Below are positions 5,521 through 19,703 of a stretch of DNA of 54,336 bases, piece after piece. The number at the start of each line of letters is the position of its first letter. Position 1 is the stretch's first letter. The translations under genes and the position numbers were made by a program. The notes beneath the pieces were generated by a model that worked only from the letters and a program-made list of their open reading frames with translations, was not told the origin of the DNA and made no database searches. This stretch comes from Candidatus Hodarchaeota archaeon (GTDB lineage: Archaea; Asgardarchaeota; Heimdallarchaeia; Hodarchaeales; Hodarchaeaceae): the NCBI GenBank assembly GCA_016839815.1, contig JAEOTM010000070.1, positions 1-54,336 of the forward strand, read 5' to 3'.

Positions 5521-7542
5521 TTGTCAAGTGAATATGGTGCAAGTAGTATACAGGTTCTAGAAGGCCTTGAAGCGGTTCGTCGCCGTCCTGCTATGTATAT
5601 TGGAAGTATAGATGAGAATGGGCTTCATCATCTTGTCTGGGAAATTGTTGATAATTCAGTTGATGAAGCCATGGCTGGGTCTTGTGACCATATTAGTGTA
5701 ATACTGGGTCAAACAGAACATGGACAAGAATCAATTACTATTCAGGATAATGGTAGGGGAATACCTACAGAAATTCACCCCGATTATAACATCTCCTCCT
5801 TGGAACTCGTTACTACACGCCTACATTCAGGAGGGAAATTCGATCATGAGTCCTACAAAGTTAGTGGTGGTCTACATGGCGTTGGAATTGCAGTAGTAAA
5901 TGCCTTATCGCGATGGATGCAGGTGAAAGTAAAGAGAAATAACGTTGTACAGATGCAGGAGTACGTGAGAGGTGAGACAATATCTCATGGTGTTATTACT
6001 GTCGAAGAGGAATGGGAATACGAGAGTGGTACTCAAATTACTTTCATTCCAGATCCTGAAATTTTCGAGGTAACTCATATCGAGGTTCCAACGATTCGAA
6101 ATCGCTTACGGGAGTTAGCTTTTTTGAATAAAGGGCTTACGATTACACTTATTGATGATAGGAAGCAGGATACCCCTATTTCCGAACCACAAAGTGATAC
6201 ACGATTAGATGATACCCAAGATCTTTCAGATATGACCGAAACAGATGAAGAAGAGGTTCCGTCAAATAAATGGGTATTTCACTTTGATGGAGGGATTAAA
6301 GCTTATGTCGATCAGCTAGCAACTAACCGTGTTCATGATGATATTCCCTATTTTGATGAAACTGTAGAGAAAATGCAGGTAGAAGTGGCGCTTGCTTATG
6401 ATCGCTCTGAGCGAGATTTAATTAATACGTTTACCAATAATATTAATACAAGACATGGTGGAACTCATTTATCTGGTTTTAAATCTGGGTTAACAAGGGC
6501 ATTAAATGCCTATGTTTTGAAGAATGAACATTTAATTCGCAATACTCATCTGAAAAAAGGGCTTAAGGAAAAAAGATCCATTTTCACTGGAAATGACGTT
6601 CGTGAAGGATTAGTCGCAGTGGTTTCAGTAAAGATCATGAATCCTCAATTTGAAGGACAGACAAAAAGTAAATTAGGGAATAGTGAGGTAAAAGGGGTAG
6701 TGGAAAGCTGTGTATATGAAAATGTCCTTAGATTTTTTGATGAACATCCAGATAGCTCACGGAGTATAATAGAAAAATGTGAAGCTGCTGCTACACTCCG
6801 AATGAAATTTCGTCAAATACGTGAAGCAGTTAGAAAGACACAAGGGAAGGGTTCTGGAAAGTTAGTCGATTGTGCTGTTTCAGATCCCGCTAAACGCGAA
6901 CTTTTCCTTGTTGAAGGTGATTCAGCAGGGGGTAGCGCTATTGAGGGACGATTTAGCGAATTTCAGGCAATTTTACCGTTACGAGGAAAAGTTATTAATG
7001 TAGAAAAAGCCCGTTTGGAGAAGGCAATGAAGAACAAGGAAATTCTCGAAATTATACGGGCCATCGGGGCAAGTTATAAAGAACATTTTAAGATTGAGAA
7101 AGTTCGTTATCATAAAATTGTTCTTCTAATGGATGCTGATATTGATGGTCATCATATCGTCTGTCTGTTATTGACATTCTTTTTCAGATATATGCCTGAA
7201 TTAATTGATGAAGGCTATCTCTATATTGCTCAACCTCCATTATTCCGAGTTAAAAAAGGAAACAAGGAAGTTTATGTACTTTCAGAACAGGAAAGAGATG
7301 ATGTAATTCATTCATGGGGTGGAAAACCAGAGATTAGTCGGTTCAAAGGATTAGGGGAAATGAACCCAATTCAGCTCCGAGAAACTGTAATGGATCCTGA
7401 GAAAAGAACTTTACTTCAAGTGACTCGGAAAAATCTTATTGATGCAGAAAGAATGTTTGTTACGTTAATGGGCGAGGAAGTAGCACCTAGACGTGCGTTC
7501 ATTGAAACTCATGCCTTAGAAGTGGAAAATTTAGATATATAA
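5521..7542 (+). CDS. gyrB: DNA gyrase subunit B
   Basis: LEAVRRRPAMYIG, EIVDNSVDE, DNGRGIP, SGGLHGVG, EGDSAGG, PLRGK, DADIDG, RFKGLGEM, C-terminal NLDI; TTG start. Confidence 0.97.
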   Translation: MSSEYGASSIQVLEGLEAVRRRPAMYIGSIDENGLHHLVWEIVDNSVDEAMAGSCDHISVILGQTEHGQESITIQDNGRGIPTEIHPDYNISSLELVTTRLHSGGKFDHESYKVSGGLHGVGIAVVNALSRWMQVKVKRNNVVQMQEYVRGETISHGVITVEEEWEYESGTQITFIPDPEIFEVTHIEVPTIRNRLRELAFLNKGLTITLIDDRKQDTPISEPQSDTRLDDTQDLSDMTETDEEEVPSNKWVFHFDGGIKAYVDQLATNRVHDDIPYFDETVEKMQVEVALAYDRSERDLINTFTNNINTRHGGTHLSGFKSGLTRALNAYVLKNEHLIRNTHLKKGLKEKRSIFTGNDVREGLVAVVSVKIMNPQFEGQTKSKLGNSEVKGVVESCVYENVLRFFDEHPDSSRSIIEKCEAAATLRMKFRQIREAVRKTQGKGSGKLVDCAVSDPAKRELFLVEGDSAGGSAIEGRFSEFQAILPLRGKVINVEKARLEKAMKNKEILEIIRAIGASYKEHFKIEKVRYHKIVLLMDADIDGHHIVCLLLTFFFRYMPELIDEGYLYIAQPPLFRVKKGNKEVYVLSEQERDDVIHSWGGKPEISRFKGLGEMNPIQLRETVMDPEKRTLLQVTRKNLIDAERMFVTLMGEEVAPRRAFIETHALEVENLDI

Positions 7543-10072: not shown

Positions 10073-13000
10073 ATGGTACCTTCGTCAAAGTCTTCAAAGA
10101 AAAGCATTTCGAGTGAAAAGGTAGTTAGAAGATCTGCAGCTGATTTTTTCCAGGATAATAAAGCTATTGCAGGTTTCGATAATACTATGAGGGTTGTTTT
10201 TACTAGTGTTCGTGAATTGGTAGAAAATGGATTAGATGCAGCAGAAAGAATGGGGCATTTACCAGAACTGCATGTGACAATTAAAAAATTGGAAAAAGAG
10301 GAAATCGCCAGGTTACTAAATGTCAGCTCTTTCGAATCTTCTGAAAAACTAGATTTTCTTAGATTAACTATCAAAGATAATGGGAGTGGAATTCAGTCTG
10401 AATTCATACCTCCTCTTTTTGGTCGGGTTCTTACAGGAAGTAATTACGGAGCTCGACAATCACGAGGTCGGTTTGGACTTGGGGCTAAAATGGTATTGTT
10501 AAATGCAATGTCGTCAGTGGATTTACCTCTTATAATTAAATCGAAGTATATAAATGAAGATTTTACGAGTTATCATGAATTAATGATAAATCTTGCAGAG
10601 AATGAACCAATAATACTTGCCCAACGTGAAATTCCACAGAATACGGCTGAAGCGATTGTTGAGTCGGGTACTGAGGTTTCAGTCACTTTCACTGGAGCCT
10701 GGAATCTAGCCTCTCGCTATATATATGATTATTTTTCTCAATTAGCAATGATTACTCCATACGCTAGTTTCTACATTCAATACCCTGATTCTGAATCTCC
10801 CATTGAGTTGGAAAGAGTAGTAGAGGAAATGCCTGCTTATCCACGGATAGCAAAAGTACATCCTTGGGGTACAGATATTACTCAGTTTAAGCGTGAGCTT
10901 AGTGTTACGAGTAGTGAAACCATGGAAATCTTCCTTCAAGAACATTTCCAGGGTATAGGACCTAAAACTGCACGAGACTTCCTTGATTTTGTTAAAATTG
11001 ATCATGAGACTGATCCTAAGAAATTAAGTGCTAGTGCTATTAGACGGATAGTTCATGAAGGTTTCACAGTCCCAGACCGAGATAAAACCAAGAAGAAAGA
11101 AAGAAAATATTTCTCTTTCAAACGACCTAGTGGAGATTCATTATCACCTCTAGGTTATGAACTCTTAGAGAAAGGTATAAGCAAAGAATTATCTCCTCAA
11201 TTTGTAAAAGCAACTTCAGGTGATATATCAGCCTATAGTGGACATCCATTTATCGTAGAAGCTGCTTTGGCCTATGGAGGACCAAATCTTTCCAAAGATG
11301 AAGGAGCTCGAGGAGCAAGTCCAAAAATATATCGATTTGCAAACAGGATTCCGTTACTTTTCGGTGCAGGTAATGATATTATTTCAAAATGCGTCCAAAA
11401 GATGAATTGGAAGAATTACAAGATTAATATTAACAAAGCACCAATAGCAATTGTTGTTTCAGTTGTATCTTCAAAAATCCCCTTCCCAGAAACGAGTAAG
11501 GAATATATCGCGGATGTTGACGAGTTAAGGCATCAAATCAATCGCGTCTTGAAGAAATTAGCTAGAGGATTAGGTCAGCATTTAGGTAGAGCTGAACGAG
11601 AAAGACGAGAAAGGCAAAGACAATCTCGATTTGAAAGTGCAGCACCAAGAGTTATACAGAACCTCTCACATATATTAACTACCGAAAATTCACCGTATTT
11701 ATTGTCATCAGGAGAAGAAATTTCCAAATTACAGAAAGCATTAGCTTCAGCAATTCCTCGGTTGGTTAGGAGATCCTATCCCCCAAGTCCACAGATTTCA
11801 ACTATCGGGGAATGGCTTCCAATGGATATTCACTTAAAACTTGTCGAAAATAATATTCAGACAATTTATCAATTTCTACGCACCCCTGTTCCTGATTTAT
11901 CCAGTATTACAGGATTATCAGTGGAGAGAATTGATGCTATTATTCGGAAAACTGTTACCCAACAAGAGCAAACATATCGATCTCCAATCGTGAGAGTTTT
12001 TGATTTCTTCTCTAAGGAGATTGAGAGAGATTTTTCGAAGTATCGGAGGAGTAATACTATTCATAAGTCATTAAATAAAAGATGGATTGTAAATGCTTTT
12101 GATTTCTTTTCTACTCCCTCTTCCCAGCTTCGAGAGGTAGACGATTTTTCAGAAAAACTCATTTTCGAGACAAAATTAAAAGCAATTAATGATTATTTTA
12201 ATACGACTCCAGAGGACACATTTAATTTTAGGCTTCTTCCTTGGTTGACACCTGACATTGAAAAAATCCTGAAAAATGCAAAGATAACTAATATCTTGGA
12301 ATATTTCGTTACATTCCCAGAAAAACTCTCTTCAATACCAAAACTAGCAATCCGTTTAATCGAAAGTGCAAAAGAAGAAATTCGAGACGGAGTGAAGGGA
12401 GAATATATTGATCCAGAGAAGGTTATTGGAGCATCGACTTTTGATTGGATGGATTACAAAGTTACACCAAAACTTAGAGGAAAGAAAATTTCCAAGATCA
12501 AGGATTTTCTAAATTCTCCTTCAGAAAAACTTGCTGAGCTGACTGAATTAATAGATAATCTAATAGTCAGGTCTAAACACAAATTGAAAGAAGAATTGCA
12601 GGTATATAATGATGAAAATTCTCTTTCCAGAATTCCTGGCATGAATGAATCCATGTTTTCGGATTTAGCTAGATTAAATGTTCGGGGATTCATTGATTTT
12701 CTCTTAACGAGTGAAAAAGAACTACTTATCGTTCGAGGACTAATGGATGCATTAATACTACTGAAACAAGATGAAATCTTGGAGGAAATCAATGCTGCTT
12801 TTGATCCTGTCCCGATTAAAAAAGCATACTGGCTCGATTTGGAATTAGAGAGAATTCTTCAGATGAAAGGAATCTTAACAATCTACGATTTTATTAGTTA
12901 TCCAACAGAGGAATTACGAAAATTAGTTGATATGGATCCACTGGTTTTAGAAACAATAAAACGGACTTATGGTACACCAATTACTATTCTAGATAGCTCA

Positions 13001-16000
13001 CTAGTGAGTAAACTTGAATCATTAGATATATTATGTCTTGAAGAGCTAATTTCTGTCGTTTCACAAAATAAAATAAAACCTAAATCTCTCTCTACAGAAG
13101 TAACGAAAATTTTAGAGCAATTAAATGTACCCGTCTGTTATCTTCCAATTCCGAGTAAATACTATTCATTACTTCATCATTTAGGAATCTCTAAGGTAAT
13201 AAACTTCCTCATCTGGCCAGATTATGATTTACATAAAAAATCAGGGATCTCATACAAAATAATTGAGGATATTAAGAGTAAAATCACCTTAGAGGGAATC
13301 CAAAACCAAATTGAAAGCAAGAGAAGGCCATTATCGATTCTAAAGAACAATTTAGAACAAAAATCAGTGAATAAACTTCTGGATTCAGATTTAAGTGTTC
13401 AGGAGCTATATTACAATCTTCCTTATGAAGATGAGAAAATTAAAGCTTTAAAATTGACTCAAAAAGAAACAAATTCGCTAATAGAGATATTTAATACCCC
13501 CATCACGCGATTATCACACATTCGTCCCAGATGGGTAAGTAGTTTAAGAGCAAGTGGAATAAAATCTTTTATCGACTTTATCTCGTGGTCGCCAGATGAA
13601 ATAGCAGGTATTTTAGGACGTGATACAGAATATGTTTCAGAATTGACAAGTAACATCCCCAAATTCTCTGATGGGATGGCTTTAATAGATCTTGGAGTAT
13701 TTACCGTTGCGGAAATGAAAACTTTAAAGACTCACGGCTATTCCACCGTAGAAAGTGTTTATTTCTGCGCAGATAAACAAACATTTGGTGTTATGGGTGT
13801 TAAGTGGAAAAAAATTGAGCGATATCAAAGAATTTTAGAAACCCCAATTGCTATGATTCAATTACAGGGAAGTACAGATCAAACCAAAATCAGAGTATCA
13901 CATGATGGATTAGAAGCATTAGCGAATAATGGAATTGATCAGATCATTAAGCTGATTTACTGGCCTTCAAATGAACTTAAATCAATCCTTAATATATCTC
14001 TAAAGCGAATAGATGAATTAAAACAAGCTGTGGCTATTAAAGAGCACGGAATGCCTTTGGAGCAAGTCGCTGGATATAACAGAAAAACAATATCAACACT
14101 GACAAATTATGGTATTGAAACTGTGGAAGATTTGTACTTTAGTGCAAATGAAGACATGCTTGATGAAGAAGATGATCTAGATTTTGCATATGTAAAAAAA
14201 GGTGTAGAATCACTAGATCTTCCTACTACGTATCTAAGTGGCATTATCCCACCGAAATATATTGATAAGCTTATTAATTATCGACTTGACACGATATTAC
14301 GGTTTTTGATATCCTCACCAAATGAATTATCAAATGTTTTAGATACTCCCGCAGAGAATGTAGAGAATCTTAGGAAGAAAGTTAATTTAATCCGGTTAAG
14401 AGAATCTACTGAAACTTCTGCCTCGATAATTGAGGGTTTAACTAGAAAACAGAATCGTGCTTTGGCTGAGGAGAATATCTTATCAATATATGATTTTTTG
14501 ACAACTCCAGACGAGCAACTTATAAGTATAATTGAGATAGAACCAGATTCCCTTAAATTAATGAAGCGAGAATTGAATCTTACAAATATCAAGACAATTA
14601 AGGAAGAAAAAATGATCCCTCTAACAAAAATTTCATTATTTGATAAAAATACTGTGAAGAAATTTGCTCGATACGGTATAGAAAGTTTGGCTGACCTGTA
14701 TTATACTGCAACACCTAAGACACTAGAGGAAAGTGATCTTGAGTGGCAAATAATACTAGATTCTCGGTTGGTATTAGAAATGCCAATTGAGACCAGTACT
14801 ATTATTACTAGGGCTGAAACAAATGTTTTTCACCGAAAGAATGTTAATTCTATATTCGATCTCATGATAGATTCGTGGGAGGATTTGAATAAAAAAACTG
14901 GAATACCAACTGATAGAATTAAGAAGATTCAGGAATCCATTCGTATACATGATATAATTAACTTGTTAAAGAATCTCTCTGTTGAAAGAATCCAGTTTCC
15001 AGCTGATTATTTAGCAAAGATAAAAGAAAAGAATATTATCACACTTTACGATTTATTAAATTCTCCTGAAGAAGAGTTATATTTGAAAAAGCAGAAAGAA
15101 AAGAAAATACGTATCACACCTGATTTATGGACTAAACTATTCACAATTTTATCAGTTCCCCTTTACTTAGTATTTGGAGCAGATAATGAAAACGTCAAAA
15201 AATTGAAACAAAAGAAAATCGATTCAATACGTGATGTCTATACAGTCGATTCGGAAAAAATCGAAAGTTTATTGGAACAGTCTCCAGAACCACTGTATTC
15301 GGATTTGAAAACGTTAAACTATGAGGAACTTAGTCAGCTTCTCACCATACCAATTAGTTTTCTTCCCTCATTACCTATAGAATGGTTTTTCCCGTTACGA
15401 GAGAATTCTATTCTTCGTGTGGGGGATTTTATTAAACTTAGTCACCGGGATTTGGCATCTATGGTATCTGCATCCTTTCCGAAAATACGAACCGTATTTA
15501 ACGCTATCACATTCGCTAATCTGATGAAAAAGTTAGAGGAAGAGGCTATTCCACTTACAAAAATATCAACTTTATTACCTCCTCAAACTCTAGAAGTATT
15601 ATCAATTAAAAAAATAACATCTTTACAAGCTTTGATCTTGTCGAATATTGAGGAATTAGCACTGGATGGAGTAACCGACCTTCTTCGGATATTAGATGGA
15701 CCCATAAATAGATTATCAGAAGATTTGCAAGTGACAGAATTACGAAAGATTTCTAATTCTGGTATCACAACTTTGAGCTCATGGTTTTCAGCACCGAATG
15801 ATGGTTTGTCCGCAATATTAGGAATGAGCAATACAGAAATAAATAGTTTAAAACAAAATTTTAACTTTGACATGGCCGGTAAGGTTGTTGATTCAGAGAT
15901 AACTGTATCAAGTGTAATTGAATCTGGTTTTATTGATTTTGAGGAACTTAAAAAACATAAAGTCAATACTCTGGAAGACCTGTTATTTATTGAAATTGAG

Positions 16001-17029
16001 ACGGTTGATGCTTCTGATCAATTTAAATCCAGGTTAAACAGTTTACGCGATGCGTTAAATTCTTCTCTTGCATATTATTCACTTGTACCTTCGTCATATG
16101 TTGTCCCACTTGCATTCAATGGAATTACGTCTGTTTATAATCTTATACAGACCGAATTTTCACAATTAGAAGGACCTACAGGGCTTATATCAGAGGAAAC
16201 CTACAATTTTGCACGGAATTCAGTGAATTTAGTAGATATATTGACTCATAAGAAGACCGAATCCGAATTTAGAGTAAAACTATCCTCATTAAGGGCTTTT
16301 ACTCCCAATCAGCTTTCAAAAATCCAGGAGCTTGGGATTGATAATGTAATTGATCTGTACTTCAGATTGGACTCAGATCGATGTCCTAAATCCTTGGTAC
16401 CGGCTATTGATGGAGTCAAGCGAGTTCTCGAAAAGCCTGTTGCAGTCCTTCCACTTGTTAGAGAATCCTTTCCTGTAAAAATCCCTCTTATGTTTAATAT
16501 GGGTTTAACCTCAATAATTGAATTTTTATTCTGGAATAAAGATGAATTAGCAGAAATTCTTGAGGTGAAAAGATATGAGATCTCAAAATATCGGAAAGTC
16601 AATCTTACAGATTTGAAACGTAAGAAAAACTTAGGTACTCCTGTTCAGAACTTCGTACGCCTCTCTGAGAAGTATTATGAACCATTAAGTGAGTTTGGAA
16701 TTACAAACATCGAGGATCTCTACTTCTATGGTAAAAGATATGCGGATTTGATCCCAGAAGAGCTAGTTCCAGGGAAATTATTAAACGCCTATATTTCTGA
16801 TCTCGAGACACCAATTGTAAAACTCGCTGAACTTCCTATTCCCTCTGCTCAAGAACTTGTGAAGAAAGGAGTAACTAGGATTATCGATTTTGTTTATTGG
16901 CCAGATGAGGAATTGAAGAAAACCCATGGATTGTCTGCAACAAAAATTAAGAAAATCCGATCCAATATTCGATTACGTAGGAAAACAGATGTATTAGGTC
17001 AATTGGATTCGTATATGGGAGGTAATTAA
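10073..17029 (+). CDS. top6B: DNA topoisomerase VI subunit B with a ~1750-aa C-terminal helix-hairpin-helix repeat extension
   Basis: N-terminal ~560 aa: RELVENGLDA, DNGSG, QSRGRFGLG (GHKL), FQGIGPKTA (H2TH), FANRIPLL, WKNY, SKEYIA (transducer); the rest is tandem ~60-aa repeats. Confidence 0.95.
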   Translation: MVPSSKSSKKSISSEKVVRRSAADFFQDNKAIAGFDNTMRVVFTSVRELVENGLDAAERMGHLPELHVTIKKLEKEEIARLLNVSSFESSEKLDFLRLTIKDNGSGIQSEFIPPLFGRVLTGSNYGARQSRGRFGLGAKMVLLNAMSSVDLPLIIKSKYINEDFTSYHELMINLAENEPIILAQREIPQNTAEAIVESGTEVSVTFTGAWNLASRYIYDYFSQLAMITPYASFYIQYPDSESPIELERVVEEMPAYPRIAKVHPWGTDITQFKRELSVTSSETMEIFLQEHFQGIGPKTARDFLDFVKIDHETDPKKLSASAIRRIVHEGFTVPDRDKTKKKERKYFSFKRPSGDSLSPLGYELLEKGISKELSPQFVKATSGDISAYSGHPFIVEAALAYGGPNLSKDEGARGASPKIYRFANRIPLLFGAGNDIISKCVQKMNWKNYKININKAPIAIVVSVVSSKIPFPETSKEYIADVDELRHQINRVLKKLARGLGQHLGRAERERRERQRQSRFESAAPRVIQNLSHILTTENSPYLLSSGEEISKLQKALASAIPRLVRRSYPPSPQISTIGEWLPMDIHLKLVENNIQTIYQFLRTPVPDLSSITGLSVERIDAIIRKTVTQQEQTYRSPIVRVFDFFSKEIERDFSKYRRSNTIHKSLNKRWIVNAFDFFSTPSSQLREVDDFSEKLIFETKLKAINDYFNTTPEDTFNFRLLPWLTPDIEKILKNAKITNILEYFVTFPEKLSSIPKLAIRLIESAKEEIRDGVKGEYIDPEKVIGASTFDWMDYKVTPKLRGKKISKIKDFLNSPSEKLAELTELIDNLIVRSKHKLKEELQVYNDENSLSRIPGMNESMFSDLARLNVRGFIDFLLTSEKELLIVRGLMDALILLKQDEILEEINAAFDPVPIKKAYWLDLELERILQMKGILTIYDFISYPTEELRKLVDMDPLVLETIKRTYGTPITILDSSLVSKLESLDILCLEELISVVSQNKIKPKSLSTEVTKILEQLNVPVCYLPIPSKYYSLLHHLGISKVINFLIWPDYDLHKKSGISYKIIEDIKSKITLEGIQNQIESKRRPLSILKNNLEQKSVNKLLDSDLSVQELYYNLPYEDEKIKALKLTQKETNSLIEIFNTPITRLSHIRPRWVSSLRASGIKSFIDFISWSPDEIAGILGRDTEYVSELTSNIPKFSDGMALIDLGVFTVAEMKTLKTHGYSTVESVYFCADKQTFGVMGVKWKKIERYQRILETPIAMIQLQGSTDQTKIRVSHDGLEALANNGIDQIIKLIYWPSNELKSILNISLKRIDELKQAVAIKEHGMPLEQVAGYNRKTISTLTNYGIETVEDLYFSANEDMLDEEDDLDFAYVKKGVESLDLPTTYLSGIIPPKYIDKLINYRLDTILRFLISSPNELSNVLDTPAENVENLRKKVNLIRLRESTETSASIIEGLTRKQNRALAEENILSIYDFLTTPDEQLISIIEIEPDSLKLMKRELNLTNIKTIKEEKMIPLTKISLFDKNTVKKFARYGIESLADLYYTATPKTLEESDLEWQIILDSRLVLEMPIETSTIITRAETNVFHRKNVNSIFDLMIDSWEDLNKKTGIPTDRIKKIQESIRIHDIINLLKNLSVERIQFPADYLAKIKEKNIITLYDLLNSPEEELYLKKQKEKKIRITPDLWTKLFTILSVPLYLVFGADNENVKKLKQKKIDSIRDVYTVDSEKIESLLEQSPEPLYSDLKTLNYEELSQLLTIPISFLPSLPIEWFFPLRENSILRVGDFIKLSHRDLASMVSASFPKIRTVFNAITFANLMKKLEEEAIPLTKISTLLPPQTLEVLSIKKITSLQALILSNIEELALDGVTDLLRILDGPINRLSEDLQVTELRKISNSGITTLSSWFSAPNDGLSAILGMSNTEINSLKQNFNFDMAGKVVDSEITVSSVIESGFIDFEELKKHKVNTLEDLLFIEIETVDASDQFKSRLNSLRDALNSSLAYYSLVPSSYVVPLAFNGITSVYNLIQTEFSQLEGPTGLISEETYNFARNSVNLVDILTHKKTESEFRVKLSSLRAFTPNQLSKIQELGIDNVIDLYFRLDSDRCPKSLVPAIDGVKRVLEKPVAVLPLVRESFPVKIPLMFNMGLTSIIEFLFWNKDELAEILEVKRYEISKYRKVNLTDLKRKKNLGTPVQNFVRLSEKYYEPLSEFGITNIEDLYFYGKRYADLIPEELVPGKLLNAYISDLETPIVKLAELPIPSAQELVKKGVTRIIDFVYWPDEELKKTHGLSATKIKKIRSNIRLRRKTDVLGQLDSYMGGN
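11785..16980 (+). repeat. Protein-level tandem array of ~28 degenerate alpha-CTD/RadA-N-like HhH units within Top6B
   Basis: Recurring P[IV]xxL...LxxxGIx[TS][IV]x[DE][FL]hxxxxx[ED]L..hxGh, e.g. LQMKGILTIYDFISYPTEEL, LRASGIKSFIDFISWSPDEI, LTNYGIETVEDLYF, LVKKGVTRIIDFVYWPDEELKKTHGLS; counted by eye. Confidence 0.85.
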
Positions 17030-17031
17030 AA

Positions 17032-18441
17032 ATGTCTGAAAAGAAACAACATACAATCGTTTTAGAGGATTACTCCTATACAAACAAAGTCGTAAAAGTC
17101 GAAATGGAGCAAAAAGATACGATACAAGGAATAATTAGTCTAATCAAAACAGCTCTTGGTCTTAAATCGGAAAAAATGCAAATCTTTTTCGGTTTGAAGA
17201 AATCTAAGTCCTTCGAAGTTCTAACCAAGAACAATTTATCGAAATTATGGGATATGACTGATGAAGGAGATGTAGTCCTCCAAATTCGTAGAAAAATTAA
17301 CTTAACAGGTTTAAGAAAGATCAGAGAAGATGTCATAGATTCAGATGTTGATCTCCCTGTATCCATCCTAAAGGTTGACAATGTTTCTGCTGAAGAAACG
17401 AAATCTCGTTTAAATAGAGTAGCATTAGAATTTCTAGATGAAATTGCAGAAGATCCTAGAAATGCTGCTTTTCGAATCCCCTCTCGGAGTTCTGAGAATG
17501 TGGGTTATGATAATAATTCCAGAATGGTTCTTCTCGGGAGTAATGTTGTAGACAGACAGTTTCGTCATTTAAGTAGTGTACAAAGTGTAGTTCAATTAAC
17601 TGGCTTGATGCGATATGTTACAGAAATACTAGCAACGGAAAAACATGCAACGAAAAGACATCTTTTCTATCGTGATGTGAACCTTTTTGGAAACCAAAGA
17701 GTTTCTGATGGATTAATTGAAGATCTGGGAGCTTTATTACGGGTATCGAGAAATTCATTGAATGTTATAGCTACAGCGAAAGGAAAAGTTATTGGAAGGC
17801 TTTCATTTACAGAAGGTGGAGATCGGATTGATTGTACTAAAGGACTAGGTGGACATGCAATTACTCCCATGCTTGATCAGGTTGGTAATTTTGATAGTGA
17901 TGCGGAATTCATGCTCGTGATTGAGAAAGATGCCGTTTTTCAAGATTTGGCTGAAGATAAGTTCTTTAATTATATTCCTTGTATTTTAATCACAGCTTCA
18001 GGACAACCTGATATGGCCACTCGTTTATTTATCAAAAAAGTTTATCAAGATTTAAGAATTCCTATTTTAGGTTTTTTGGATGCTGATCCTTACGGTTTAG
18101 ATATTTTACGTGTATATTCTATTGGGAGTAAAGCGCTCAGCTTCGAGAGTGTCGAGCTAGCTGTACCAGATATACGATGGTTAGGATTACTACCTTCTGA
18201 TATTGAAGAATATCAAATTCCAAAGTCTGTATTGATTAAAATGACAGATAACGACATTAAACGCGCTGATGATCTATTAAAGGAGGATTTTGTCAAATCA
18301 CGGCCTGAATGGGAAAAACAAATCCTTATAATGAAAAATACTAGACAAAAGGCTGAAATTCAGGCATTAGCAAGTAAAAATTGGCGGTATATGACTGGAA
18401 CATATTTACCAACTAAGATTGATTCAGCAGACTGGGTATAG
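17032..18441 (+). CDS. top6A: DNA topoisomerase VI subunit A (Spo11 family) with an N-terminal ubiquitin-like extension
   Basis: ATKRHLFY (catalytic Tyr), VIEKDAVF, GQPDMATR, DADPYG TOPRIM motifs, KAEIQAL; ~100 extra N-terminal residues. Confidence 0.95.
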   Translation: MSEKKQHTIVLEDYSYTNKVVKVEMEQKDTIQGIISLIKTALGLKSEKMQIFFGLKKSKSFEVLTKNNLSKLWDMTDEGDVVLQIRRKINLTGLRKIREDVIDSDVDLPVSILKVDNVSAEETKSRLNRVALEFLDEIAEDPRNAAFRIPSRSSENVGYDNNSRMVLLGSNVVDRQFRHLSSVQSVVQLTGLMRYVTEILATEKHATKRHLFYRDVNLFGNQRVSDGLIEDLGALLRVSRNSLNVIATAKGKVIGRLSFTEGGDRIDCTKGLGGHAITPMLDQVGNFDSDAEFMLVIEKDAVFQDLAEDKFFNYIPCILITASGQPDMATRLFIKKVYQDLRIPILGFLDADPYGLDILRVYSIGSKALSFESVELAVPDIRWLGLLPSDIEEYQIPKSVLIKMTDNDIKRADDLLKEDFVKSRPEWEKQILIMKNTRQKAEIQALASKNWRYMTGTYLPTKIDSADWV

Positions 18442-18453
18442 GTCCTTGGGCGT

Positions 18454-19122
18454 ATGTCTCCTCCTAAGTTTAACATGTTTCCCGAATTTAAGGAAAATTA
18501 TTCATACTATGCTCTTCAGAGTAATCTAGAGCTAGTAGAGAGCGTTGTTAATTTTTCTCGCGGCCAGTTTCTTAGCCCTGAGAAAATTGAGCTGATAAAG
18601 GAGAAACTTGGAAAGAAGTTAATTGGGACGAAGTTTTATCCTGGAGGATCCAGTGTATTATTTGGTTGGAGTTTTCCGTCTGAACAAGTCGGAAGATTGA
18701 TGTATAAACCATACTATAGCCGACATTTAACACAGTTGCTAATTCATTATTTTTGTATAAGTGAATTTCTAAAATCTTTCAAACTAATTGATTTAGACCC
18801 TAAACTACAGGATTATCGATTTGCTACACCGAAAGTGATCGGTATTGCTAAAATTGAAGCTTTTGAAAGGGAGTTTCCTACTTTAATTGTCGAGGAAGTC
18901 CAAGGGGATACGATAAAAGATGATCTAAATCTGATTAAAGCAATTAGCCATCTTTCAAAGAAGCTTGCGAAAACAGGTCTAATTTGTGACCCTTATTCTG
19001 CAAATTGGAAATATTACTCAAACCAAGATAAAAAACATATTTCGTACATTGATCTTTTAAGTTCAAACAAACTCAAGGATATTAATTCACGTATTTCTAA
19101 GCTAATCAAACAGTTACAATAA
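18454..19122 (+). CDS. Putative atypical protein-kinase-like (RIO/Bud32/APH-type fold) protein
   Basis: Motif order PGGSSVLF (Gly loop), LMYK (beta3 Lys), TPKVIG, LIVEEVQG (hinge), ICDPYSAN (DxxxxN catalytic loop), YIDL (DFG equivalent). Confidence 0.55.
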   Translation: MSPPKFNMFPEFKENYSYYALQSNLELVESVVNFSRGQFLSPEKIELIKEKLGKKLIGTKFYPGGSSVLFGWSFPSEQVGRLMYKPYYSRHLTQLLIHYFCISEFLKSFKLIDLDPKLQDYRFATPKVIGIAKIEAFEREFPTLIVEEVQGDTIKDDLNLIKAISHLSKKLAKTGLICDPYSANWKYYSNQDKKHISYIDLLSSNKLKDINSRISKLIKQLQ

Positions 19123-19136
19123 GCATGAAAAGAAAA

Positions 19137-19703
19137 TTAGTTTTGGTCTCGATATGAAACTGCACGTCTGATCGCAGAAGCAAAAGCCACGACTACACCT
19201 GTATTCTTTACAGCTGAAGTTGGGAAATATTGTGCATGCATTTTATCCGCAAATCTCTGTCCTATATCATCACTTACTTCCCTATTACTCTCTAAATCAA
19301 CTTTATTCCCAATAAGAACTGCTGGGCTATCAGGAATTACTTTCTTAACTTCTCTGAACCAGCTAGGAAGGGATAGGACTGTACTTTCTCTTGTGATATC
19401 AAAAACGTAAATTACAGCATGAGCTCCTTCATAAAAAAGTGGTCGAACCTTGTGAAAAGCTGGTTGTCCAGAAAGATCCCAAAAAATAGCTGTTGTTGTG
19501 CTTTTTCCTTCGCTTGGACTTGTTAGCTTAATAAAGGAGATATCAGCTCCTGCTGTCGGTTTATGTTCGAAATCACGTTTTGTGAAAACGGATACAAGCT
19601 GTGTTTTTCCAACCAATGCATCCCCTGCTACTACGATTTTATATTGACTATAATGAGGGATTTCAAATAATATATCATTAGGTGCGGACACGATAGGGAC
19701 CAC
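19137..19703 (-). CDS. Rab-like small GTPase
   Basis: GDALVGKT, PT, WDLSGQ, FYEGA, VFDIT, NKVD, TSAV. Confidence 0.93.
   Translation of the reverse strand: MVPIVSAPNDILFEIPHYSQYKIVVAGDALVGKTQLVSVFTKRDFEHKPTAGADISFIKLTSPSEGKSTTTAIFWDLSGQPAFHKVRPLFYEGAHAVIYVFDITRESTVLSLPSWFREVKKVIPDSPAVLIGNKVDLESNREVSDDIGQRFADKMHAQYFPTSAVKNTGVVVAFASAIRRAVSYRDQN

Follow-up and report, generated by a model that had tools for sequence, protein, structure and literature searches.

An N-terminal ubiquitin-like domain on the Top6A subunit of topoisomerase VI in a Hodarchaeales archaeon

Introduction

What is the segment that precedes the canonical enzyme in the Top6A protein of a Hodarchaeales archaeon, and what could it do there? 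The question is raised by a stretch of 54,336 nucleotides from Candidatus Hodarchaeota archaeon (assembly GCA_016839815.1, contig JAEOTM010000070.1, positions 1 to 54,336), which is referred to here as the window. On its forward strand, the open reading frame at 17032 to 18441 encodes Top6A, the DNA-cleaving subunit of topoisomerase VI (Topo VI) (P0001; 469 amino acids [aa] plus stop; Pfam TP6A_N and TOP6A-Spo11_Toprim). An earlier note, made from the sequence alone, had proposed that this protein begins with a ubiquitin-like (Ubl) domain of the beta-grasp fold. The proposal was borne out by an AlphaFold2 model, by structural matches, and by profile matches to ubiquitin, and the coding sequence of the domain (residues 1 to 90; 17032 to 17301) is under purifying selection. 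Residues 1 to 90 almost certainly form a ubiquitin-superfold domain that is related in sequence to ubiquitin and is shaped most like the two-helix beta-grasp domains of the PB1/TBCB type.

The meiotic enzyme Spo11 descends from Top6A, and archaea of the Heimdall group are the closest known relatives of eukaryotes. The "conserved Asgard Top6A" is regarded as closest to eukaryotic Top6A/Spo11, and some Asgard lineages carry extra copies of Top6A and Top6B (Feng et al. 2025, PMC12680538).

The N-terminal residues of Top6A are additional to the canonical enzyme

The protein belongs to the Top6A/Spo11 family. It has a winged-helix domain with the catalytic Tyr (TP6A_N, PF04406, 63.1 bits against a cut-off of 26, residues 186 to 245), the acidic residues of a Toprim domain (PF21180, 208 bits, residues 293 to 463), and an adjoining Top6B with GHKL and transducer domains. 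F212/Y213, E298, and D350/D352 were unchanged across 27 diverse Top6A orthologues, and Y213 paired with the Tyr-Arg of 2zbk_A in the alignment. When all solved chains were searched with phmmer, residue 114 aligned with residue 8 of S. shibatae Top6A (2zbk_A, E = 6e-57). The first ~106 residues are therefore additional to the canonical enzyme, and neither yeast Spo11 nor any of the solved Top6A chains had an equivalent of them, which agrees with the earlier statement that ordinary Top6A lacks such a domain.

The canonical body, as delimited by the phmmer comparison with solved chains, comprises the N-terminal arm, the winged-helix domain with the catalytic Tyr, and the Toprim domain (residues 114 to 469; 17371 to 18438). 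Between it and the Ubl domain lies a connector (residues 91 to 113; 17302 to 17370), which consists of an amphipathic helix at residues 92 to 102, present in the AlphaFold2 model, and a short linker. According to the alignment column statistics, L91, I94, I97, and V101 of the connector are conserved hydrophobic positions.

Fold of the N-terminal domain

Using an alignment of 82 orthologues, AlphaFold2 modeled the Top6A N terminus with a predicted local distance difference test score (pLDDT) of 83.3, and blocks over residues 11 to 90 reached 87 to 92. The model contains strands at residues 6 to 13, 20 to 26, 49 to 55, 62 to 63, and 81 to 87 and helices at 31 to 42 and 66 to 76, in the order b-b-a-b-b-a-b, with an additional helix (92 to 102) directly after the beta-grasp domain. 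The first and last strands are those that had been named from the sequence, HTIVLE and VVLQIRR. This model replaced a single-sequence model of residues 1 to 125 (pLDDT 65.7), for which the Foldseek matches were weak, with E values from 7e-3 upward.

In an exhaustive search with VIA-align, all of the 50 best matches were beta-grasp domains. The PB1 domain of Par6 was the best match (Z 11.2; root-mean-square deviation [rmsd] 2.0 Å over 79 residues), followed by the PB1 domains of NBR1 (Z 11.0) and AtNBR1 (Z 9.9). The Ubl domains of TBCB/TBCE (Z 9.0 to 9.4), the SMCHD1 UBL (Z 8.8), ubiquitin itself (Z 8.3), the proteasome-binding UBLs of Dsk2, hPLIC2, and NUB1 (Z 8.0 to 8.4), and USP UBLs were also among the matches. 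Foldseek and the ESM Atlas likewise returned beta-grasp matches only. The template modeling (TM) score of the p67phox PB1 domain to the Ubl model was 0.77 to 0.80, and the nearest shapes in the ESM Atlas were PB1 proteins. The shape is closer to PB1 than to the FERM-F1/RA-type domains that had been suggested, and only 3 of the 82 orthologues matched RA_2 or FERM_f0.

Sequence relation to ubiquitin

Taken by itself, the N terminus of the window protein (residues 1 to 103) scored below every Pfam cut-off (Ubiquitin_3, 12.6 bits against 24; RBD_ZCCHC3, 12.9 bits); thus, the assignment to ubiquitin is based on the profile of the family, on its orthologues, and on the fold. A profile built only from Hodarchaeales N termini picked out polyubiquitins among 1.84 billion proteins, with E values of 1.7e-13 to 1e-3 summed over the repeats, and these matches were confirmed by Pfam. 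The 82-sequence profile matched single ubiquitin chains in the PDB (E = 3e-6 to 4e-5; 27 to 30 bits), and hhalign aligned it to one ubiquitin unit with 92% probability (E = 5e-7). HMMER and hhalign independently reproduced the gap-free register of 38 residues that had first been drawn by eye, and its count of 10 identities was correct. Pfam ubiquitin (PF00240) matched 17 of the 82 orthologous N termini; P0069, P0070, and the copy from family f20, a family of the same phylum, exceeded its cut-off. Further N termini matched UN_NPL4, Rad60-SLD, Ubiquitin_2, RA_2, or FERM_f0. Taken together, the profile comparisons argue for a likeness to ubiquitin that exceeds chance. The description of the domain as a "eukaryote-style" module holds in this respect, that is, for fold and sequence likeness only.

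Strand 3 stood out in the column statistics: positions 49 to 53 are hydrophobic in 84, 70, 96, 98, and 90% of the family, i.e., on both faces of the strand. In the register of the hidden Markov model, I51 (96% hydrophobic) is the equivalent of ubiquitin I44. The canonical L8-I44-V70 patch is incomplete: roughly half of the family has Arg at the V70 equivalent, and only 76% have a hydrophobic residue at the L8 equivalent.

The free ubiquitin of the window's genome was less like the Top6A domain (hhalign probability, 40%) than eukaryotic ubiquitin was (92%). Among proteins of 64 to 263 aa, the 82-row profile found 10 free-standing matches of 90 to 197 aa, mostly on contigs of ~1 to 4 kb. Two of them (P0121 and P0122) match the start of Top6A, and the short matches look like cut Top6A N termini; no donor Ubl was found in this size range with this profile. 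As a separate observation, two loci of the genome carry ubiquitin-family genes together with E2 (UQ_con) genes (G000:C135:26673-37607 and G000:C7:12500-15097).

Translation and integral status of the domain

Eight close Hodarchaeales homologues share the N-terminal extension, with 55 to 85% identity compared with 88 to 98% in the core. Nearly all of the 120 best core relatives are 460 to 496 aa long, and their N termini align position for position. In comparisons with the two closest genomes, codons 1 to 90 showed nonsynonymous differences per site (pN) of 0.065 to 0.097 and synonymous differences per site (pS) of 0.745 to 0.785, whereas the pN of the core was 0.016 to 0.027. The resulting pN/pS was about 0.09 to 0.12, with synonymous sites saturated. 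The domain is under purifying selection as coding sequence and evolves about four times faster than the core. A Shine-Dalgarno-like GGAGGT, read directly from the sequence, lies on the forward strand at 17018 to 17023, 8 bases upstream of the Top6A start codon, and the stop codon of top6B (17027 to 17029) is separated by 2 bases from the ATG at 17032. The start previously placed at this ATG is upheld by the selection pattern, the ribosome-binding motif, and the short gap.

Strand 5 is followed by the sequence RRKINLTG, which continues into the helix and then into Top6A. Gly-Gly does not follow the domain in the window protein, and between positions 80 and 112 it occurred in only 1 of the 82 orthologues. 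The C-terminal Gly-Gly or Gly for E1 that characterizes a conjugatable (type 1) modifier is thus absent from the Top6A domain. For comparison, the free 80-aa ubiquitin homologue of the genome (contig C135) has GG near its C terminus and ends in TTGGTNR. Because Gly-Gly is lacking and the chain continues into a conserved amphipathic helix, the domain is best described as an integral "type 2" Ubl, neither a conjugatable modifier nor a cleaved fusion, as had been suspected from the missing GG.

Distribution and single origin

A full-length Top6A profile was used to search 301 genomes of the phylum, in which families f1 and f2 belong to the window's own order and f3 to f6 and f7 to the same class, while f20 is labeled only as belonging to the same phylum. 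Matches spanning both the Ubl domain and the core, in frames of 462 to 506 aa, were found in f1, f2, f3 to f6, and three of the five f20 genomes. The Top6A proteins of f7 (399 to 417 aa) are without the domain; their alignment to P0001 begins at residue 77, so that the connector helix is kept. Frames in the other families were 389 to 424 aa. Measured on stop-to-stop frames, 106 to 148 residues lie ahead of the core in the Ubl lineages, compared with 12 to 68 elsewhere.

In maximum likelihood trees of the core, built with the Ubl domain removed and without eukaryotic sequences, all Ubl-bearing Top6A proteins fell on one side of a branch with 100/100 support. These trees require no more than one gain of the domain, or a single loss should the root fall within the Ubl clade. 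Its acquisition was probably a single event in the lineage of Top6A proteins whose partner is a giant Top6B.

In two f20 genomes, a single contig encodes a Top6B of 560 aa, a Top6A of 387 aa, a 963-aa HEAT-repeat protein, a Top6B of 2,294 aa, and a Ubl-Top6A. These double Topo VI loci are L042 (G050:C125, 663 to 14876) and L043 (G041:C6, 862 to 13436), with Ubl-Top6A proteins of 472 and 463 aa, respectively. Bin contamination was considered as a source of the Ubl-type matches in f20 and rejected, because in two genomes the short and long Top6A genes share a contig, at a distance of ~10 kb. Because canonical and giant/Ubl sets share one contig, the giant/Ubl Topo VI is a distinct variant that is able to coexist with ordinary Topo VI.

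The giant Top6B partner

The Top6B gene of the window (10073 to 17029, forward strand) encodes 2,318 aa. By open reading frame and Pfam, it consists of a GHKL/transducer core (residues ~1 to 530; Topo-VIb_trans, 174 bits at 352 to 516; HATPase_c, 27.9 bits) and ~1,750 aa of helix-hairpin-helix (HhH)-type repeats, with RAD51D_N/HHH_5 matches along the tail. The tail is colinear between f1 and an f3 orthologue of 4,185 aa over about 1,600 aa, with 31.5% identity. The same f3 protein ends in a Lys/Thr-rich low-complexity stretch.

Every Ubl-Top6A with a complete neighboring Top6B frame adjoins a giant Top6B (2,289 to 4,305 aa) with an HhH tail, whereas Top6B measures 505 to 1,155 aa in the lineages without the domain. 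By family, the frames are 2,312 to 2,346 aa in f1, at least 1,323 to 1,359 aa in f2 (possibly cut by contig ends), 4,140 to 4,305 aa in f3, 3,473 to 3,587 aa in f4, 4,244 aa in f5, 3,573 aa in f6, and 2,289 to 2,294 aa for the giant copy in f20. The values for f3 to f6 refer to the longest, apparently complete frames, and shorter ones (down to 629 aa) may be cut by contig ends. Without the Ubl domain, f7 has frames of 1,108 to 1,155 aa plus a second copy of ~500 aa, and five genomes of other families have 505 to 694 aa, with one frame of 1,103 aa. The co-occurrence of the domain with a long Top6B tail, which the earlier note had suggested looking for across genomes, was thus found, the Ubl-Top6A occurring only where Top6B is giant; it amounts to one evolutionary event.

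An intermediate arrangement was seen in f7 at L002 (G292:C39, 882 to 5601), where a Ubl-less Top6A of 399 aa adjoins a Top6B that measures ~1,150 aa and has an HhH tail (HHH_5, E = 2e-26); the second, ~500-aa Top6B of this family is located elsewhere in the genome. Another arrangement was seen in f11 at L003 (G215:C7, 1122 to 3452), where a 776-aa Top6A has an N-terminal extension of ~370 aa with Lys-rich tails and four HHH_5 units (Pfam E = 8.6e-46). Top6A frames of 709 to 845 aa recur across f11. In this family, the DNA-binding repeats are on the A subunit instead of on the Top6B tail. Because the f11 Top6A N terminus bears a Lys-rich tail and four HHH_5 units, the Top6A N terminus and the Top6B C terminus are interchangeable attachment points for the same DNA-binding modules. 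The corner of Topo VI at the Top6A N terminus seems to have gained DNA-binding appendages repeatedly.

Possible roles of the Ubl domain

The earlier note had put forward proteasome/Cdc48 removal of trapped cleavage complexes, GTPase binding, and docking to the Top6B tail as possible functions. The role that we favor, tentatively and as somewhat short of an even chance, is that of a fixed protein-docking adaptor or brace at the A-B junction of Topo VI. Judging from solved Topo VI structures of other species, the domain would sit at the contact between Top6A and the end of the Top6B stalk; this position is expected because only ~20 residues separate the Ubl domain from the arm of Top6A located ahead of the winged helix. 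The same junction would be the start of the long DNA-binding Top6B tail and the exit of the bound DNA arms. There, the domain could brace the subunit junction, or it could hold and orient the first modules of the Top6B tail. In Topo VI of M. mazei, the stalk of Top6B is followed by a small helical hairpin to which the winged helix of Top6A binds; the DNA arms contact the C-terminal end of the stalk, and the stalk is a tension sensor for cleavage (PMC13040014). An analogy is offered by the GHKL ATPase SMCHD1, in which an N-terminal UBL and strap stabilize an interface between subunits and removal of the UBL abolishes dimerization of the GHKL module (PMC6620310). The hydrophobic strand 3, with I51 at the place of ubiquitin I44, is a possible interface.

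Several points weigh against an adaptor or brace. The proposed position at the junction is carried over from solved structures of enzymes without the Ubl domain. The pairing of the domain with giant Top6B reflects a single evolutionary event and is for that reason weak evidence of a physical link. The surface residues of the domain change about 4 to 6 times faster than the core, and only its hydrophobic positions are well conserved across the clade, a pattern that would also fit a loosely constrained spacer. Moreover, the hydrophobic face of strand 3 may be either exposed or covered in cis by helix 92 to 102. A predicted complex of Ubl residues 1 to 103 (82 rows) with Top6B residues 530 to 1425 (5 rows), which covers the proximal half of the tail, scored 0.00 in both runs, a score that counts on neither side of the question of binding.

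Alternatively, the domain could be a recruitment tag that is read by the proteasome, by Cdc48/PAN adaptors, or by UBA/UIM-type proteins, leading to extraction or degradation of stalled or trapped Topo VI; we consider this unlikely. Proteins of the Rad23/Dsk2 type have a built-in UBL that is read by ubiquitin receptors. A tag of this kind is consistent with the likeness to ubiquitin proper rather than to another beta-grasp family, with the strongly hydrophobic character of the I44-equivalent position, and with the proteasome-binding UBLs among the structural matches. Ubiquitin-reading machinery is plausible in this organism, given its genes for free ubiquitin-family proteins and at least four E2 (UQ_con) genes that pass the Pfam cut-off. 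However, the canonical patch is incomplete at the L8 and V70 equivalents, an essential enzyme that bore a degradation signal permanently would have to be controlled in some additional way, and the strict pairing with giant Top6B would be left unexplained.

Also unlikely is a basic module close to DNA, in which the Ubl domain would touch the DNA arms that leave the Top6A channel and add to the DNA surface of the stalk and HhH tail. The domain is basic (median isoelectric point [pI] 9.43 over the 82 orthologues), with K59 being Lys in 89% and R87 being Arg in 74% of them, and P0047, P0052, P0055, and P0062 have an extra Lys/Arg-rich tail just upstream of the domain. The HhH units at the Top6A N terminus in f11 and the contact of the M. 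mazei DNA arms with the end of the stalk (PMC13040014) point in the same direction. Nevertheless, the pI is as low as 4.3 in some orthologues, and no DNA-binding motif was found in the domain. Furthermore, beta-grasp Ubl domains are mainly protein-binding modules.

A broader proposal, to which we give a rather low probability, is that the giant, Ubl-bearing Topo VI, which in one lineage coexists with a canonical one, could be a specialized second type IIB machine of the Heimdall group whose Ubl domain plugs into the Asgard ubiquitin/Cdc48/proteasome network, for regulated extraction of trapped complexes or for controlled assembly. If true, the way in which eukaryotes handle topoisomerase-DNA adducts through ubiquitin/SUMO, and their control of Spo11 by accessory factors, would have a forerunner in archaea.

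Self-association in the manner of PB1 domains, by which the Ubl domain would link Topo VI particles head to tail or join the two halves of one particle, is quite improbable. It is suggested by shape, since the best structural matches (Par6, NBR1, and p67phox) and the nearest ESM Atlas shapes are all PB1. The sequences do not follow the shape: none of the 82 orthologous N termini matched Pfam PB1 (PF00564) at E ≤ 0.01, and the column statistics of the alignment, which are not a structural test, showed no conserved OPCA-type acidic cluster and no conserved Lys at positions 6 to 13 in strand 1. The acidic stretch DMTDEGD of the window protein is not conserved across the family. Membership of the PB1 family was accordingly rejected; the shape fits, but the sequence profile and motifs fail.

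It is highly improbable that the gene encodes a ubiquitin-fusion precursor from which the Ubl domain is cut off after translation to give a free Ubl and a normal Top6A. The domain is N-terminal, as in the eukaryotic fusions of ubiquitin to ribosomal proteins, and P0006 is annotated as 445 aa from Met25, which looks like the annotator's choice of start codon. The family has no GG (apart from the 1 of 82) or other conserved cleavage motif, and the junction is a conserved amphipathic helix that is shared with the Ubl-less relatives. An untranslated N terminus with a true start downstream and a chance likeness to ubiquitin, for which nothing speaks except the weak Pfam score of the lone sequence, has practically no standing, being refuted by the low pN/pS together with the profile matches and the fold model, while the frame is open and conserved in every orthologue and the Shine-Dalgarno-like motif and the 2-base gap after top6B also speak against it.

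Neighboring genes

The topoisomerase genes form a tightly packed run that also includes gyrB at 5521 to 7500 (Pfam). A 222-aa gene without a Pfam family at E ≤ 0.01 begins 12 bases 3' of top6A (18454 to 19122, forward strand). It was present in 21 of 23 other f1/f2 genomes, where it usually lies directly after top6A, and in none of 57 genomes of the other families of the class when this query was used; weak paralogues (22 to 28% identity) occur elsewhere in f1/f2 genomes. As a conserved partner of the topoisomerase it was rejected, as it is confined to the window's own order and does not track the Ubl domain. A small GTPase of the Ras/Roc family (19137 to 19703, reverse strand; Pfam Ras, E = 4e-35) is convergent with the topoisomerase operon.

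Significance

Neither a Top6A with a Ubl domain nor a giant Top6B was found described in the openly accessible literature consulted (PMC12680538; Allen and Maxwell 2024, PMC11302465; a 2025 Spo11 review, PMC12203943; and the 2026 Topo VI cryo-electron microscopy study, PMC13040014), which leaves most subscription journals uncovered. The main text of PMC12680538 does not contain ubiquitin, Ubl, beta-grasp, "extension," or "HhH"; both features are therefore undescribed there. The Ubl-Top6A is a new domain architecture of a known enzyme, in which a Heimdall-group lineage rebuilt a core DNA-topology enzyme with a kind of module that is elsewhere characteristic of regulation in eukaryotes. A docking or recruitment function, if true, would give an experimental handle on the assembly or control of the giant enzyme and on the question of whether DNA-processing enzymes were recognized in a ubiquitin-type manner before eukaryotes arose. 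Even as a structural brace only, the domain would make a new architecture for type IIB topoisomerases. Expression or modeling of Asgard Topo VI would need to include the Ubl domain.

Comparison with known systems

Canonical Top6A proteins, namely, 2zbk_A (389 aa), those of M. mazei (2q2e_A/9o0g_A, 369 aa), and that of M. jannaschii (1d3y_A), match residues 114 to 469 end to end, whereas the window protein has ~106 extra N-terminal residues in the form of the Ubl domain and connector. Its partner Top6B of 2,318 aa compares with a usual length of about 500 to 620 aa in canonical Topo VI. The extra Asgard copies of Top6A and Top6B reported in PMC12680538 match the two sets seen in f20.

With ubiquitin and the type 2 Ubls (TBCB/TBCE, USP4/11/15, and Rad23/Dsk2), the domain shares the beta-grasp fold (Z 8 to 9.4) and a profile similarity to ubiquitin in the same register. 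Like the type 2 UBLs, it is embedded in a larger protein and has no end for conjugation; its host, a type IIB topoisomerase subunit, is a setting for which no description was found. It differs from ubiquitin in having a full second helix (66 to 76) in place of the 3-10 turn, and the L8-I44-V70 patch is kept only in part. The PB1 domains of Par6, NBR1, p67phox/p40phox, and MEKK3 are closer in shape (Z 9.7 to 11.2; rmsd 2.0 to 2.8 Å over 77 to 81 residues) and have the same b-b-a-b-b-a-b order, but the Top6A domain is without a Pfam PB1 signal, OPCA cluster, or strand-1 Lys. Its shape is PB1-like, with two helices, and its sequence signal is that of ubiquitin.

The UBL and strap of SMCHD1 (6mw7; PMC6620310) likewise form an integral N-terminal UBL ahead of a segment that docks on the partner of a GHKL-type DNA enzyme. 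The SMCHD1 UBL matched the Top6A domain with Z 8.8 and 19% identity, among the highest identities in the VIA list. The SMCHD1 UBL belongs to the ATPase chain and contacts the neighboring ATPase domain, whereas the Ubl domain of Top6A belongs to the DNA-cleaving subunit, a long way from the ATPase end. The likeness to SMCHD1 is drawn as an analogy, with no claim of common descent, and it is the known arrangement to which a docking or bracing role for the Ubl domain of Top6A may be compared.

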